Positions 14,396 to 27,987 of a stretch of 32,000 nt of DNA are shown here, piece after piece (positions within the stretch are counted from its first letter, which is position 1; the number at the start of each line of letters is the position of its first letter). Under the pieces are notes generated by a model. That model saw only the letters and a program-made list of their open reading frames with translations, ran no database searches and was not told where the DNA came from. The DNA is from Nitrososphaerota archaeon (GTDB lineage: Archaea > Thermoproteota > Nitrososphaeria > Nitrososphaerales > UBA57), in contig JABUBF010000001.1 in assembly GCA_013306035.1 (NCBI GenBank), forward strand, positions 12,220 to 44,219, written 5' to 3'. A program made the position numbers and the translations under genes.

Positions 14396-14460
14396 TATTT
14401 ATAATTCTTGAATTACAATTTTAAAAGTTGACACTATTTATTAATACTATGTTGATTTTA

Positions 14461-20376: not shown

Positions 20377-20439
20377 TTATTTTATCTAATAATGCTTATT
20401 TTCTAGTGATAACATAACTGTCTTGATTGAGTTGATTTT

Positions 20440-23251: not shown

Positions 23252-23308
23252 CTTGAATATTAATTCAAGAAGTAGGGGGGGGACGTAGCCTAGCTCGGTT
23301 ATGGCGTC

Positions 23309-23328
23309 AGCACTTGTTGTGCCGCTAA
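23309..23328 (+). other. tRNA-Trp intron 1 (20 nt, non-canonical position 28/29) with bulge-helix-bulge motif
   Basis: Central 4-bp helix GGCG (23303-06) / CGCT (23323-26). It is flanked by 3-nt bulges TCA (23307-09) and AAC (23327-29), with splice sites after the second bulge nucleotide. The inner hairpin is GCAC-TTGTT-GTGC. Confidence 0.75.
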
Positions 23329-23337
23329 CGGCTCCAG

Positions 23338-23400
23338 AAGCTAATAGTATAATTTAGGTAGAACTGACTTATTGGATGATGTACCTTTGGAGCAGCAGTG
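23338..23400 (+). other. tRNA-Trp intron 2 (63 nt, canonical position 37/38)
   Basis: Relaxed BHB: CTCC (23332-35) pairs with GCAG (23395-98) at 3 of 4 positions. The bulges are AGA (23336-38) and TGA (23399-401). GCT/AGC forms the inner helix. The intron contains CTGA (23364-67) and ATGATG (23376-81). Confidence 0.7.
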
Positions 23401-23483
23401 ACCGGGAGATCGTGGGTTCAAATCCTGCCGTCCCCATTTCCTCATCTTTCTTAATGGCATACGTATTTAGTAATTAGATTATG

Positions 23484-24341
23484 TTAAGCAGGAACTAAAT
23501 ATTTAATTTCCTTCAAATTATCTTCTAATGTATTTTCATTCGGCATTACTATGGCTGGTAGAAATCTCTTTGAGGTACTTTCTGTTAATGCCTGACCTCC
23601 GACTACTATAGGTTTGTCATATCCTTTGGATATGTTCTTAACAAGATTTATACCACTTTGTACATTTGCAGGCAGTGTTATAGATACTAATACCATATCT
23701 GGTTCGATATTTGCTACGTATTTTATTACATCCTTGCTTGGAGTCGACGGAGATATATTATATACATTATAACCCTTGTTAGTTAATATCGATTCAAGCA
23801 TATTACATACAATATTATGACGTTCACCAGAAGGATTACATATCAATAATTTAGATTTTTTCTTCTTCTTCACGTCTTTCTTATTCATCTCACTAATTAT
23901 TCCAAGTAATCTATTACTTACAACATGTTCTGTTCCTATCATCAATTCATTTCGCCTCCAACGATCACCTACGTCATATAGAATGTGTTTCACTATTTTA
24001 TCATAAAATTCTAGTATTGAAAAATCATCACTATATTCATCATATACAATAGATAAGTTAATAGGTCCAGGACCTGCTAATTTTTTGAATAAATCTTTAC
24101 GTACCTTTTCAACATATTTATTATAATTTTTACCTGATGCGTTCTGGTCCTTGGCAAAGAATTTAATTATATTCTTGTTATCTATATAATCTTCTGGAAT
24201 ATCATCTAATGTGATTTTCTCAGTTCTTCCAAGATATTTTATCGTTTCCTGTTTTGATACCTTTTTCTTCTTGTCCCAGATACTTCTTACTAGGTACGAA
24301 TAATCCATTCCTTTTACTCGTTTATTTCTTATGTAGACCAT
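23484..24341 (-). CDS. CarH-like cobalamin (B12)-binding protein with a non-MerR N-terminal domain; putative B12/light-responsive regulator
   Basis: C-terminal Rossmann-type B12 domain LLICNPSGERHNIV...DMVLVSITL...PIVVGGQAL (E-x-H lower-ligand motif). It is preceded by a helical-bundle cap motif VGDRWRRNELMIGTEHVVS. Both are collinear with CarH (VGEAWHRGEIGVAEEHLAS ... PPGERHEIG). The N-terminus reads YIRNKRVKGMDYSYLVRSIWDKKKKVSKQETIKYLG. Confidence 0.7.
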   Translation of the reverse strand: MVYIRNKRVKGMDYSYLVRSIWDKKKKVSKQETIKYLGRTEKITLDDIPEDYIDNKNIIKFFAKDQNASGKNYNKYVEKVRKDLFKKLAGPGPINLSIVYDEYSDDFSILEFYDKIVKHILYDVGDRWRRNELMIGTEHVVSNRLLGIISEMNKKDVKKKKKSKLLICNPSGERHNIVCNMLESILTNKGYNVYNISPSTPSKDVIKYVANIEPDMVLVSITLPANVQSGINLVKNISKGYDKPIVVGGQALTESTSKRFLPAIVMPNENTLEDNLKEIKYLVPA

Positions 24342-24384
24342 TGAGACACTAAATCACATTCTAATATATATAGTATTTAGCACT

Positions 24385-24396
24385 AGAATTAATTCT
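24385..24396. promoter_or_regulatory. perfect 12-bp palindrome AGAATTAATTCT flanked by GCACT direct repeats, between divergent promoters
   Basis: Read directly: GCACT-AGAATTAATTCT-TGGCACT. It lies between TATA-like elements facing the B12-binding gene (about 24361-24376) and the epimerase gene (about 24431-24440). Confidence 0.3.
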
Positions 24397-24454
24397 TGGC
24401 ACTATGAAGAATCTTCTATATGTATTATAAATGATAATAAAAAATATCTGACGT

Positions 24455-25348
24455 ATGAAGAAAATACTAGTTAGCGGTTCTACTGGTTTTATTGGCAAGA
24501 ATTTTATAAATTTCATCACACACGAATCATTTTCCGTAACAAAATTAGTAAGAAAAAATAATCATGTTGATGATTCTAGTATATTTTGGAATCCATATGA
24601 GGACGTATTAAACATAGATAAATTCGAAGATTTTGATGTAATAATTCATCTGTCAGGACGTTCTCCTATAACAAGAATTACTCAAAATGTAAAACAGGCC
24701 TTGTATTCAAGTCGAGTCGAAACAACAAAAAATTTAGTTAATATGATAACTAAATTAAAAAAACCTCCTGACGTTTTTCTCTGTGCGTCAGCTACAGGTT
24801 ACTATGGCGATCAGGGAAATACTGATTTATACGAGTCTTCTAATGCAGGAAATGGATTCTGGTCGGATATGTGCAGTGATTGGGAAACTGCCACTATACC
24901 TGTAAAAGAACTTGGTATAAGAACAGTAAATCTTCGTATTGGCAATGTTATTGATAAGGTAATGAATTTAATATTATTGAAACTTCCAATATTCTCAGAT
25001 TTTGGTCATGGCAATCAGTATTATCCATTTATCTCAATGCATGAATTAAATAATATTCTTCTTCATGTAATACAGAACGACAATATTAACGGTCCAGTTA
25101 ATTTAGTATCTCCTCAACCCATAACCAATCACATGTTTAATCAAGCATTAAGTAAGGTTTATCACCGCCCTGCAATATTATCTATTCCCGAAATTCTTCC
25201 AAGATTGTTTCTAGGACGAGAAATTGCAAATCTTCTATATGGTAGTAGTAAAGTTTTCCCTAAAAAATTACTTGATTCAGGTTATAAATTTGCTGAAAAT
25301 ACTCCTGAAGAATCGATAATTCATTACAAAAATTACCGAGTCAAATAG
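24455..25348 (+). CDS. NAD-dependent epimerase/dehydratase family protein (YfcH/SDR39U1-like, TIGR01777-type)
   Basis: N-terminal Rossmann motif ILVSGSTGFIGKNF. Internal IHLSGRS, SSRVETTKNL, CASATGYYG and WE motifs, plus a C-terminal extension collinear with YfcH-type proteins. Confidence 0.7.
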   Translation: MKKILVSGSTGFIGKNFINFITHESFSVTKLVRKNNHVDDSSIFWNPYEDVLNIDKFEDFDVIIHLSGRSPITRITQNVKQALYSSRVETTKNLVNMITKLKKPPDVFLCASATGYYGDQGNTDLYESSNAGNGFWSDMCSDWETATIPVKELGIRTVNLRIGNVIDKVMNLILLKLPIFSDFGHGNQYYPFISMHELNNILLHVIQNDNINGPVNLVSPQPITNHMFNQALSKVYHRPAILSIPEILPRLFLGREIANLLYGSSKVFPKKLLDSGYKFAENTPEESIIHYKNYRVK

Positions 25349-25364
25349 GTGAATAAGTGTATAA

Positions 25365-25830
25365 TTGATTTATCTGGATTATGTTATTATTGGACTCATA
25401 TCTGGTATTTTCCCCACAATAGTTATGTCAATCTTTGAATTTCCATTCTATAAAATTTGGGGCATTAAGAGTGTATATGAACTTCATGAAAGTGAGATGA
25501 TTGTGTGTAAATTGATGAAAAGAAAATTCCAGAATAATATCTCCCGTATGGGAATCTTGACACATCTGCTCAACGGATCTTTGCTCTCCGTACCTTTTGT
25601 TATTTTCATTAATCTAACAAAATACCAATCCTAGTATAATTATTGGAATACTTTATTCTGTTGTTATTTGGCTTGTTACATTATTACCTGTTCATAAACT
25701 GATTACTGGTGAATCTATTAGTGAAAATCCTTACGGATACCAACCTGCTTTGGTCAGTATAATTGGACACTTTATCTATGGCATTATGTTGTACTATAGC
25801 TATATGACTCTTGGAGGTCTTTTGAATTGA
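25365..25830 (+). pseudogene. small 4-TM membrane protein, paralog of 25827-26291, interrupted by a +1 frameshift at about 25632
   Basis: Frame 0 (25365-25634) aligns to the first about 90 aa of the downstream paralog and ends at TCC-TAG. The +1 frame (open 25618-25830, IIIGILYSVVIW...GHFIYGIMLYYSYM) aligns to the second half of the paralog. That frame has no start codon of its own near its 5' end. Confidence 0.65.
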
Positions 25831-26291
25831 ACTTTGATTTTCTTCTTAATGGATTAATTGCTGGTTTTATAGCCACCGGCGCAATGTCTATCCTTCAAAT
25901 TCCAATGTACAAAAAATGGGGAATGACTTCTGTTCTTGAATGGCACGAAAACCAGGTTATTACATCTAAAATTATTAAAAATAATCCTGAAGAATTATTA
26001 ATCCCGAGCTTCTTTTTTCATTTTCTCCACGGCGGGCTTGGAGGCATAGCTTTTGCCATTACTGTAAGTATAATTAATTTTCAGGTGTCATATTTGATTT
26101 CTGGAACCGTTTTAGGATTTCTTTTTGCTTTAGTTGTTCTAATTATTCATGAGCCAATTACAAAAGTCAAACCTCTTCAGCATCCATTAGGAAATCTTCC
26201 AGTTATTGCAAGTTTCGTAAATCACGCAATTTATGGCGCTGCATTAGGATATTTTCTTTTTCATCTTTCTCACTTTGATATTATTTTATAA
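25827..26291 (+). CDS. small integral membrane protein (4 predicted TM, unknown family)
   Basis: 154-aa hydrophobic ORF with a TTG start overlapping the stop of the upstream paralog (TTGA). Motifs shared with the paralog are G.IAG......MS....P.YK.WG..SV.E.HE and NH.IYG..LGY. Confidence 0.7.
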   Translation: MNFDFLLNGLIAGFIATGAMSILQIPMYKKWGMTSVLEWHENQVITSKIIKNNPEELLIPSFFFHFLHGGLGGIAFAITVSIINFQVSYLISGTVLGFLFALVVLIIHEPITKVKPLQHPLGNLPVIASFVNHAIYGAALGYFLFHLSHFDIIL

Positions 26292-27629
26292 TTGTGTTGT
26301 GTAAATCTCTTTATCATAAAATGTAAAGTGTGCTACTACTAGTAATACTGCAACTATACATAGACCTATTATGTTCAATATTGACGTGTTTACATCAGGA
26401 AAACTTCCTAAAATTGCCATTCCTTTACTAACTTGATATGGTCCAATTTTTGGTAAATATGAAATCAAATACATGGTGTCTGTTAACCAGAATAACGCTG
26501 CAGTCCAACCTACTATTCCTGCCAACAACGATCCTAGTCTAGCTCTCTTTCTTACGAAATAATAACCTATTCCAATTACTGTTAACCAGACCAAAGTTAC
26601 TATGCCTGTTAATGGTTGCATTGTCATCAATCTTTGATCTATGAGATAATGTAAGACCCCTGTAATTCCTAATATTATCAATAAATAAGAAAGGTAATTT
26701 TCTTTTTTTGTGAATTCTTCTTTATCTTCCTCATGCGAAGTTAATTTTAATGATTCATCTACTCCTTTTAGTGGAATTGGTATCAAGTCCATTATTGATT
26801 TCTCAGTCATTACTGATTCATTTTTTAATCCTTCCACTAATGGCCGCGCTAATGATGCTTTTATCGGCGTAACCAAATCTACCCAATATGAGGTGAATCT
26901 CAGGCTTAGAAATGGTATAATTATCATTATTATAGATTTGTTATTTATTTTTCCATACTTTTTCATCATTTCTCTATATTCTAGTATGTCAGGTCCTCCA
27001 ATATCGAATGTTCTCGCTTCAGTTTCTTTAACATTCAAACTTTCATAGAGATATCGTACTACATCGTCTATGTATATTGGCTGTAATTTTGTCAGAACCC
27101 ATTTTGGACAGACCATTATTGGTAATCTTTCTACTAAATACCTCATCATTTCAAAGCCTCCGCCTCCTTTACCTAGAATGACTGAAGCACGAAACACTGT
27201 GACCTTAGCTTTCGACGTTTTTAAAATCTCGCCTACTTCTTGTCTACTTGACATATGTTTAGACATCTCATTATCTGGGATACTCACTAATCCTCCTACA
27301 TATATTATTCTCTTTACATTGCATTCTGTCGATGCATCGGCAAAGTTCTTTGCAATCCTTTTATCCAGATCTACAAATCTTTCCCAATCCTTTGATTCAC
27401 CCTCCATTGAATGAATAAGGTAATATACAACATCAATTCCTTCTAGAGCCTTCAGTACTTGTTTATAGTCTTGTGCATCAGCTTTTATTTTCTCTAGATT
27501 ATTATGTTCTAAATTATCTAAACTCTCTAAATTCCTCGACATTACTCGAACGGATATTTTTTTTCCTAATAGAAATCGAACAAGTTTCTTACCAATAAAA
27601 CCACTTGCTCCCGTGATCAGTATTTTCAT
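26286..27629 (-). CDS. NAD(P)-binding SDR/NmrA-like protein fused to a C-terminal multi-TM domain
   Basis: N-terminal ILITGASGFIGKKLVRFL Rossmann motif and about 300 aa of atypical-SDR fold. After an acidic linker (HEEDKEEF), about 130 aa contain four hydrophobic helices. Confidence 0.7.
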   Translation of the reverse strand: MKILITGASGFIGKKLVRFLLGKKISVRVMSRNLESLDNLEHNNLEKIKADAQDYKQVLKALEGIDVVYYLIHSMEGESKDWERFVDLDKRIAKNFADASTECNVKRIIYVGGLVSIPDNEMSKHMSSRQEVGEILKTSKAKVTVFRASVILGKGGGGFEMMRYLVERLPIMVCPKWVLTKLQPIYIDDVVRYLYESLNVKETEARTFDIGGPDILEYREMMKKYGKINNKSIIMIIIPFLSLRFTSYWVDLVTPIKASLARPLVEGLKNESVMTEKSIMDLIPIPLKGVDESLKLTSHEEDKEEFTKKENYLSYLLIILGITGVLHYLIDQRLMTMQPLTGIVTLVWLTVIGIGYYFVRKRARLGSLLAGIVGWTAALFWLTDTMYLISYLPKIGPYQVSKGMAILGSFPDVNTSILNIIGLCIVAVLLVVAHFTFYDKEIYTTQL

Positions 27630-27657: not shown

Positions 27658-27987
27658 CTAAATACTTTCCATGTACATAGATACAGGATTATCATTTGCC
27701 ATTTTATTCCATAATTCAGTATCATGTATCTGAATTAATTGTATGTCGTTCATTTCTGTTTTTCCTGTTGTAGTTACTATGTTTTCATTTTCGGTTGTAA
27801 AATTTATTTTAATGTTCTTTCCAACATCATGAAATTCTTCAGGAATAAGAATTTCTTTTTCTCCATATTTGATATATATTGGAATTTCTAAATCATCATT
27901 AAAAATTTTTCCTGAAATATTAGATTCTGTTAAACTTACATCAACTTGAAACTTTATTGGGAATTCAATTTTTATATTCATAAACAT
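27658..27987 (-). CDS. hypothetical protein (no recognisable motif)
   Basis: 109-aa ORF, acidic, no TM. The coding call rests on length and its position downstream of nothing else on this strand. Start could be M1 or M3. Confidence 0.45.
   Translation of the reverse strand: MFMNIKIEFPIKFQVDVSLTESNISGKIFNDDLEIPIYIKYGEKEILIPEEFHDVGKNIKINFTTENENIVTTTGKTEMNDIQLIQIHDTELWNKMANDNPVSMYMESI

Follow-up and report, generated by a model that had tools for sequence, protein, structure and literature searches.

The 32,000-nucleotide stretch of Nitrososphaerota DNA analysed here (contig JABUBF010000001.1, hereafter the window) is AT-rich (31-39% G+C) and carries on its minus strand, at positions 23484-24341, an open reading frame (ORF) with an ATG start for a 285-amino-acid protein, to which we refer as the regulator. 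The flanking genes, assigned by Pfam to DUF1512, methionine aminopeptidase and cytidylyltransferase, are ordinary archaeal housekeeping genes. An initial annotation, made from the sequence alone, had interpreted the protein as a light-sensing module of the CarH/LitR type, which binds adenosylcobalamin (AdoCbl), joined to an N-terminal head not of the MerR type, and had proposed the 113-bp region (24342-24454) between the gene and its divergent neighbour as the binding target. Ammonia-oxidising archaea carry out much of marine and soil nitrification and are inhibited by light; to our knowledge, neither a light sensor nor a light-responsive regulator has been recognised in these organisms, and B12-based photoreceptors have been characterised so far only in bacteria.

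The closest genome-resolved relatives of the regulator (84-94% identity) are encoded by metagenome-assembled genomes (MAGs) of marine Nitrososphaerales (Thaumarchaeota). Homologues in the protein collection number more than 200. The few that are named belong to Nitrosopumilaceae, Nitrososphaeraceae and Nitrosotenuis, and automatic annotation labels the homologues variously, from 'B12-binding domain protein' through 'MtbC1' to 'MerR family light-induced regulator'. A scan of one genome per GTDB species yielded 254 regulator loci and places the family in at least 254 GTDB species; all 80 listed of these 254 come from Nitrososphaeria, including Nitrosopelagicus, Nitrosotenuis, Nitrosocosmicus and Nitrosopolaris, and some MAGs carry two copies. 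As part of the explanation developed below, we consider it rather likely that the family is specific to ammonia-oxidising archaea (Nitrososphaeria).

A predicted CarH-class cobalamin-binding module

The AlphaFold2 model of the protein (mean predicted local distance difference test score, pLDDT, 86.5) begins with three strands, followed by a helical region and a Rossmann domain. Residues 68-155 (23877-24140, minus strand) are predicted from the model, from alignments to the bundles of CtMerR, CarH and a photocobilin and from conservation to form a helical bundle above the upper face of the corrin, with helices at 70-89, 96-103, 109-129 and 135-155, and contain G125xxW128 and E138-H139. The Rossmann-type B12-binding domain, assigned to residues 160-285 (23487-23864, minus strand) on the basis of PF02310, conservation and alignments to MetH, the Chloracidobacterium regulator CtMerR and a photocobilin, contains the motifs G172-E173-x-H175, S197xxxP201, S220-I-T and G248-G249. 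On the DNA, the codon of W128 lies at 23958-23960, those of E138-H139 at 23925-23930 (H139 at 23925-23927) and that of H175 at 23817-23819; the explanation favoured below includes H175 as the probable lower axial histidine.

Residues 166-254 pass the gathering threshold of PF02310 (40.6 bits vs 32.1, E 2.7e-10), and the Pfam cap family PF02607 gives a weak match. The CarH equivalog NF052513 (TransRegCarH) is the top NCBIfam model (residues 114-267, E 4.9e-14). In sequence searches of the PDB the best match is 8jbs, the B12 domain of CtMerR (E 2.7e-12), followed by MetH, photocobilins and Thermus CarH (TtCarH). A family profile built from 23 members ranks the photocobilin entries 8j2x/8j2w (9e-20) ahead of CtMerR (5e-18), the photocobilin AbDPcob 8j2y (2.7e-14) and MetH (1e-13), with corrinoid proteins, TtCarH (4e-10) and AerR next. 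Foldseek comparison of the model with the PDB likewise places CtMerR, TtCarH, photocobilin and AerR domains on top, with target-normalised TM-scores of 0.7-0.8.

Residue conservation was computed over 79 distinct homologues, and G125, W128, E138, H139, G172, E173, H175, P201 and G248-G249 are identical in all of them. The published light-response signature (SignatureFinder) consists of GxxW, EH, GxxH and GxxxP, and W131, E141, H142 and H177 are the key AdoCbl-binding residues of TtCarH (PMC11796333). The first three motifs are present as G125xxW128, E138-H139 and G172xxH175. Taken together, the sequence, profile and fold matches argue that the C-terminal two-thirds of the protein (residues ~68-285) is a predicted cobalamin-binding module of the CarH class, and its likeness in sequence to CarH-type modules is far beyond chance.

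These results bear out the sensor module put forward in the initial annotation, for which PF02310 above threshold, CarH as the best NCBIfam model and CtMerR as the best PDB match all speak. The motifs quoted there (VGDRW128RRNELMIGTE138H139VVS, PSGE173RH175NIV, DMVLVSITL and VVGGQAL) lie at the residue numbers given, and the TtCarH numbering used there agrees with the published one (PMC11796333). The spacing comparison also stands: W to E is 10 residues, as between W131 and E141 of TtCarH, and the histidine of EH is separated from the lower histidine by 36 residues vs 35 (H142/H177). A grouping with cap-less mutase or methyltransferase domains, which that annotation had regarded as decisive against it, was not found in these rankings, where photoreceptor domains precede methyltransferase and MetH B12 domains. 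Overall, its interpretation is supported, and each computational check proposed there gave a favourable result.

A conserved beta-sheet head with relatives in other archaeal proteins

Residues 1-45 (24207-24341, minus strand) form, according to AlphaFold2 and conservation, a basic three-stranded beta-sheet head that is a putative DNA-binding domain. Its strands (2-9, 12-23 and 28-39) are antiparallel, and residues 2-39 have pLDDT >90 in both the full-length and the head-only AlphaFold2 models. The head is the most conserved region of the protein, with a mean pairwise identity of 65.5% vs 42-48% in the other regions; Y3, R5, K7, Y14, Y16, V18, S20, W22, Q31, Y36 and G38 are invariant or nearly so. 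No Pfam family and no MerR or other helix-turn-helix was detected in residues 1-115, in line with the non-MerR head proposed initially, and searches with the head in Pfam, PHROGs, NCBIfam, PDB sequence profiles and, by tblastn, phage and plasmid collections returned nothing significant. Foldseek with the confident head-only model also gave no significant match (best E 0.35 in the PDB and 0.068 in BFVD); weak, non-significant matches to PC4, PI-SceI, AFT2 and HNH endonucleases were not used as evidence.

A profile search of 1.84 billion representative proteins yielded 536 matches to the head, which is N-terminal in every one. Beyond the B12 regulators it is found in HNH endonuclease fusions, an AbiEii nucleotidyltransferase fusion, a ~170-amino-acid family and small stand-alone proteins, and the non-B12 proteins with named hosts come from Diapherotrites and Woesearchaeota. 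The fusions include P0230, P0221, P0236, P0223 and related proteins, the AbiEii-type one being from Ca. Diapherotrites; the C-terminal domain of the ~170-amino-acid family (Woesearchaeota and others) is unannotated. A broad head profile, used in a second protein search (word-indexed), found only unannotated proteins of at most 86 amino acids. The presence of the head in HNH, AbiEii and ~170-amino-acid proteins therefore defines an unannotated archaeal domain family with several hundred representatives. Because a strongly basic, aromatic-rich sheet repeatedly precedes nucleic-acid enzymes, the head is best read, from sequence and model, as a nucleic-acid-binding module. The basic, beta-rich motif, likened in the initial annotation to the N-termini of some archaeal DNA-binding proteins, does recur at the N-terminus of other archaeal proteins, namely the HNH and AbiEii fusions. 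The N-termini of IS1634-type transposases may resemble the head motif, but we make no claim of such a relationship.

A direct repeat at the promoters of the regulator and its neighbours

When the 200-nt upstream regions of the regulator were compared across all loci, a direct repeat emerged, consisting of TTAGCACTAG, nine bases and TT(A/G)(G/C)CAC/TTA, followed at once by an AT-rich TATA-like box; its period is 19 bp. It occurs in both Nitrosopumilaceae and Nitrososphaeraceae although the surrounding DNA cannot be aligned between them. A 14-nt position weight matrix (PWM; core TT[A/G][G/c]CAC[T/c]A[G/t]) was built from 79 distinct regulator upstream regions, and its sites occur at 5.4 per kb upstream of the regulator vs 0.57 per kb elsewhere, a comparison that is partly circular. 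The spacing of sites is an independent test: same-strand pairs number 12, 71 and 12 at spacings of 18, 19 and 20 bp, vs a mean of 0.48 per spacing (maximum 5) at spacings of 25-80 bp. Three- or four-site arrays at 38-bp spacing showed no excess.

Of these pairs, 90/95 lie outside ORFs although ORFs make up 78% of the DNA (nominal binomial P 2e-52, the loci not being independent). Some two-thirds of the pairs are located elsewhere than upstream of the regulator; they precede genes of the neighbouring families f5 (secreted or membrane-anchored), f2 together with DUF6789, and f3, as well as genes for an NDH-2-like enzyme, a cyclase and an amine oxidase, and pairs also occur between f5 and a DUF1722-photolyase unit. 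The 3' end of a pair is typically 27-31 nt before the start codon of the gene in the same orientation, and the pairs thin out with distance: there are 3.8 per 10 kb at up to 500 nt from the regulator start, and 0.06-0.3 per 10 kb farther than 4 kb away. When metagenomes were scanned for the DNA pattern TTAGCACTAG-N9-TTRSCACTA alone, 119 loci (median length 4.2 kb) were retrieved, of which 57 encode the regulator and 92 contain a flanking gene from a family of the regulator neighbourhood. On account of its spacing, intergenic placement, decay with distance and recovery by pattern alone, the element is therefore real, promoter-associated and genetically linked to the regulator family.

The window contains one such pair, within the divergent region that the initial annotation had proposed. 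The candidate operator half-site 1, TTAGCACTAG, at 24377-24386 (plus strand) is the sole exact match in the 32-kb window and scores 19.0 of a maximum of 19.6 with the PWM; candidate half-site 2, TTGGCACTAT, follows 19 bp later at 24396-24405 (plus strand), and together they are the sole PWM pair. The pair is 34 nt from the regulator ATG and 48 nt from the ATG of the divergent gene, with which it shares its orientation. An AT-rich TATA-like box that probably belongs to the regulator's own promoter adjoins half-site 1 at 24362-24373 (minus strand), at a distance from the ATG as in homologous loci, and the sequence TTATAAAT at 24425-24432 (plus strand), ~23 nt before the ATG of the divergent gene, is its probable TATA-like box. 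Single copies of the 10-mer TTAGCACTAG with at most two mismatches are not over-represented in the window (31 vs 26 expected), so only the paired, 19-bp-spaced form is informative. Lone half-site matrix matches with no partner at 18-20 bp occur in intergenic DNA at 14426-14439 (plus strand, AGTTGACACTATTT) and 20401-20414 (minus strand, TGTTATCACTAGAA); they are probably chance matches, though situated in promoter regions.

The gene divergent from the regulator, a likely target, occupies 24455-25348 (plus strand) and encodes a TIGR01777 (YfcH-type, DUF1731) NAD-dependent oxidoreductase (238 bits vs 207; Pfam Epimerase and DUF1731). Two likely co-transcribed targets follow on the same strand, both encoding DUF6789-like membrane proteins: one at 25365-25829, which is frameshifted near 25630 and was recognised by homology past the stop, and one at 25827-26291 (weak Pfam DUF6789 match, 25.4 bits vs a cut-off of 27.1). 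The ORF of the former stops at 25634 after 89 amino acids, and the conserved C-terminal half (…LLPVHKLITGES…GH.IYG…) is read in a different frame up to ~25829; intact 162-amino-acid homologues are encoded in sister loci (locus L008, 7397-7885), and the disruption is either an assembly-error frameshift or a pseudogene. The DUF6789-like family itself is divergent from the regulator in sister loci, with the operator between the two genes. On the opposite strand, 26286-27629 encodes NADTM, a 447-amino-acid NAD(P)-binding protein related to short-chain dehydrogenases/reductases (SDR) and NmrA, with a C-terminal membrane domain (Pfam). The initial annotation had taken the whole range 24455-27629 as the set of targets; the divergent unit starting at 24455 does have the repeat upstream, but the range comprises two transcription units and the other is without a repeat. 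Searches with the PWM found no second operator pair in the window, including upstream of 27658-27987 and of the NADTM gene, and we therefore do not claim direct control of NADTM in this genome.

Gene neighbourhoods in relatives

The ORFs of 87 regulator loci were clustered to compare neighbourhoods. The most constant neighbour is NADTM, present in 45/87 loci as a protein of 447-480 amino acids with the domain organisation described above. In Nitrososphaeraceae the one-strand order f3 > NADTM > f2 (DUF6789-like) > regulator recurs; in Nitrosopumilaceae NADTM is adjacent to or divergent from the regulator. Recurrent neighbours confirmed by Pfam include DNA photolyase, DUF1722, pyrimidine-dimer glycosylase (Pyr_excise), UvdE and methylpurine glycosylase, together with an amine-oxidase/CrtI-like flavoprotein, SRPBCC proteins, an NDH-2-like enzyme, a class III cyclase, a MEDS-domain protein and a TFIIB paralogue. 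DUF1722 is the family of Escherichia coli YbgA, which is co-transcribed with phr. At least one of photolyase, Pyr_excise, DUF1722 and UvdE is encoded within 8 kb in ~18/87 loci, a linkage to ultraviolet (UV) repair that is many times chance for a single-copy gene in a genome of 1.5-3 Mb.

A head-only protein of 73 amino acids, P0310, is encoded directly downstream of the NADTM gene on a Nitrososphaeria contig (L206, 4001-4222; also L207). Its gene is preceded by an operator-like repeat and a TATA-like box, and tblastn detected no remnant of a B12 domain at this locus; judged by its sequence, P0310 represents a form of the regulator that naturally does without B12. Since it retains both the operator-like repeat and the position beside NADTM, this paralogue supports the connection of head with operator.

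Two further kinds of neighbour were noted. A MEDS-domain protein and a small protein of ~90 amino acids, possibly a winged helix, are encoded between NADTM and the regulator in L037 (7039-7590) and in L071, L082 and L085 (Nitrosopelagicus); MEDS is among the output domains reported in fusion with light-responsive B12 domains (PMC11796333). Several Nitrosopumilaceae encode a TFIIB (TFB) paralogue one to four genes downstream of the regulator (L055, 1940-2842; homologues in L027, L036, L058 and L077), and such a dedicated TFB could share in the same response as the regulator.

Proposed mechanism and alternative explanations

We consider it probable that the protein is a one-component cobalamin-dependent transcription regulator that combines a CarH-class module with an archaeal beta-sheet head and works as a light-released repressor. 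For this we infer that AdoCbl is bound, that the protein oligomerises, that its head binds the repeat, that light is the physiological signal and that the effect is repression, not activation. On the model of CarH and CtMerR, AdoCbl would be held with His175 as the lower cobalt ligand, with Trp128, Glu138 and His139 capping the 5'-deoxyadenosyl group, and the beta-sheet head would take the place of the MerR domain found in bacterial CarH/LitR. Loaded with AdoCbl in the dark, the protein would oligomerise through its B12 domains, so placing two heads on the two half-sites of TTAGCACTAG-N9-TTRSCACTA; a direct-repeat operator suits head-to-tail B12-domain dimers as in CarH. The repeat would abut or overlap the TFB-recognition element (BRE) and TATA region of target promoters and block the binding of TFB and TATA-binding protein (TBP). 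The second of the two half-sites is directly beside the TATA-like box, in the position of the BRE, so that a bound operator should exclude TFB and TBP and hence repress. Green or near-UV light would then cleave the Co-C bond, the oligomer would dissociate and the promoters would be freed. In the window, the predicted targets are the promoter of the regulator itself and the divergent TIGR01777-oxidoreductase/DUF6789 unit; in relatives, they make up a local regulon for membrane proteins, secreted proteins and redox proteins (including NADTM, DUF6789 proteins, an NDH-2-like enzyme and an amine-oxidase-like flavoprotein), often interleaved with the UV-repair genes photolyase plus DUF1722, Pyr_excise and UvdE.

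Several observations weigh against this explanation. The CarH model NF052513, although the best-scoring one, is missed by far at its cut-off (52.3 bits vs 400). The Gly of GxxxP is replaced: position 197 is Ser in 65, Thr in 7, Ala in 6 and Arg in 1 of the 79 homologues, Pro201 being invariant. At the third residue past the lower-ligand His the family has Ala, Gly, Val or Ser, and the window's clade has Val, not Gly or Ala. No structure significantly related to the head was found, so that DNA binding rests on context. In the window's clade the orientation of the repeat is the inverse of that of the regulator gene, an arrangement shared by the sister loci L007-L011. The repeat counts are not independent, since the PWM was derived from upstream regions of the regulator itself and many of the loci are relatives of one another. 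UV-repair genes occur in just ~18/87 loci, most predicted targets are proteins of unknown function, and soil lineages, possibly deep-water lineages too, carry the family.

Three of the sequence deviations concern the published signature, namely the Gly of GxxxP, the position of TtCarH H132 and the third residue past the lower-ligand His, and none of them speaks against AdoCbl binding. The Gly of GxxxP has no obvious contact with AdoCbl in the characterised proteins (PMC11796333); with Ser, Thr or Ala at this position, the whole family would have escaped the published GxxxP filter. The equivalent of H132 is never His in the family and is Arg in the window protein, as in CtMerR, which has Arg after the Trp and nevertheless binds AdoCbl, undergoes photolysis in green light and changes from tetramer to monomer (PMC11796333). 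The third residue past the lower His also varies elsewhere, being Ala in CtMerR and Pro in a photocobilin.

The main alternative is that the protein senses B12 status, that is, an AdoCbl-binding regulator that responds to cofactor supply, the role of cobalamin riboswitches in bacteria, with light sensitivity as a side effect. Domain architecture and operator evidence fit such a sensor equally well, ammonia-oxidising archaea make and depend on cobalamin, and most predicted targets have no known light link. Cobalamin biosynthesis, salvage or transport genes and genes for B12-dependent enzymes are, however, absent from the recurrent neighbours and the repeat-preceded genes; photolyase, DUF1722, Pyr_excise and UvdE recur nearby, and the closest characterised domains are all photoreceptors, so we regard this explanation as unlikely, though the one most deserving of attention beside light sensing.

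It is less likely again that the protein is a partner switch like AerR/PpaA, in which the head would contact a protein or RNA and the repeat would be bound by another factor, such as the neighbouring TFB paralogue or the small winged-helix protein. AerR is indeed among the fold and profile matches, several loci have a TFIIB paralogue beside the regulator gene, and the head has no proven DNA-binding relative; nevertheless, the repeat is linked to the regulator gene even in lineages without either neighbour, head-only paralogues retain it, the head is strongly basic and joined to nucleases elsewhere, and the direct repeat suits a head-to-tail B12-domain oligomer as noted above. A methyl-carrying corrinoid protein of a methyltransferase system is very improbable. 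The name 'methanogenic corrinoid protein MtbC1', given to some homologues by JGI, and weak NCBIfam matches to the MtgC, MtaC and MtbC models favour such a function; those matches reach 24.6-36.5 bits vs cut-offs of 310-450, about ten-fold short, while the CarH model scores best. No methyltransferase partner gene recurs in the 87 neighbourhoods, and corrinoid carriers have neither the invariant W-x9-EH cap nor the conserved additional N-terminal domain; we therefore rejected the MtbC1 annotation for this gene.

Whether the light-released repressor extends to a general light sensor of ammonia-oxidising archaea, the first archaeal B12-based photoreceptor, whose new class of beta-sheet DNA-binding domain reads the 19-bp-period repeat across the BRE/TATA region and which switches on a compact photoprotection regulon of membrane-redox and UV-repair functions, appears evenly balanced to us. 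If so, it would offer a molecular entry point to the photoinhibition long observed in archaeal nitrification. In that case the head would also define a wider archaeal superfamily of nucleic-acid-binding domains, shared with HNH nucleases and AbiEii-type toxins of DPANN archaea.

Relation to known systems

The regulator resembles CarH/LitR (TtCarH, PDB 5c8d/5c8e) in its one-component layout of N-terminal head, four-helix bundle and Rossmann B12 domain, in its W-x9-EH cap and ExH lower ligand at near-identical spacing, in its direct-repeat (here candidate) operator at the promoter and in its association with photolyase and photoprotection-type genes. It differs in having a beta-sheet module in place of the MerR winged helix, an archaeal host with TATA/BRE promoters, no His at the TtCarH H132 position and a candidate operator of two 10-bp sites with a 19-bp period, whereas the CarH operator consists of tandem 11-bp repeats. 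As the MerR head is absent and the cut-off of the family model is not reached, we do not count the protein as a member of CarH/LitR.

The best match in sequence and fold is CtMerR of Chloracidobacterium thermophilum (8jbs/8jbt; PMC11796333), which shares the motif GxRWRRxEL...EH including the Arg after the Trp. It differs in its MerR head and in the Gly of GxxxP, where the archaeal family has Ser, Thr or Ala, and the two proteins are only ~19% identical over the fold alignment. The B12 domains of photocobilins (Saccharothrix SasPcob 8j2w/8j2x and AbDPcob 8j2y; PMC10979010) are the best match of the family profile. These proteins have a C-terminal biliverdin-binding domain of their own and enzyme outputs and lack a DNA-binding head, whereas the archaeal protein ends after its Rossmann domain.

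The antirepressors AerR/PpaA (7te2) have the same bundle-plus-Rossmann fold; the archaeal protein differs from them in its conserved extra head and the associated cis-element. AerR has no DNA-binding domain and acts through CrtJ, and no PpsR-like neighbour was found among the family-scanned neighbours of the regulator. Short basic N-terminal three-stranded sheets, also fused to HNH domains, are known from AP2/ERF-type and integrase arm-binding domains; the head has no significant sequence or fold match to these, so homology is not established and the comparison is one of analogy only.

Searches of the accessible literature turned up no description of an archaeal CarH-like regulator, which agrees with the initial statement that none had been characterised in this lineage. 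What is new is best described as the archaeal host, the putative DNA-binding module and the geometry of the candidate operator; the theme of a transcription factor built on a B12 photoreceptor is known. The system thus presents a concrete candidate for sensor, operator and regulon in Nitrosopumilaceae and Nitrososphaeraceae, with the protein, a ~30-bp DNA site and candidate target genes defined, and its head introduces an undescribed, putative archaeal DNA-binding module. It may also offer a compact green-light switch for archaeal and eukaryote-like TATA/TFB promoters.

A tRNA-like gene beside the regulator

Between the cytidylyltransferase gene and the regulator, at 23279-23439 (plus strand), lies a tRNA-like gene. 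ARAGORN reported no tRNA at 23279-23439, and Rfam gave only a sub-threshold match to the tmRNA model (15.6 bits, E 0.0013). The acceptor-stem ends match (GGGGACG...CGTCCCCA) and a T-arm is present; at ~160 nt, the gene would probably contain at least one long intron.

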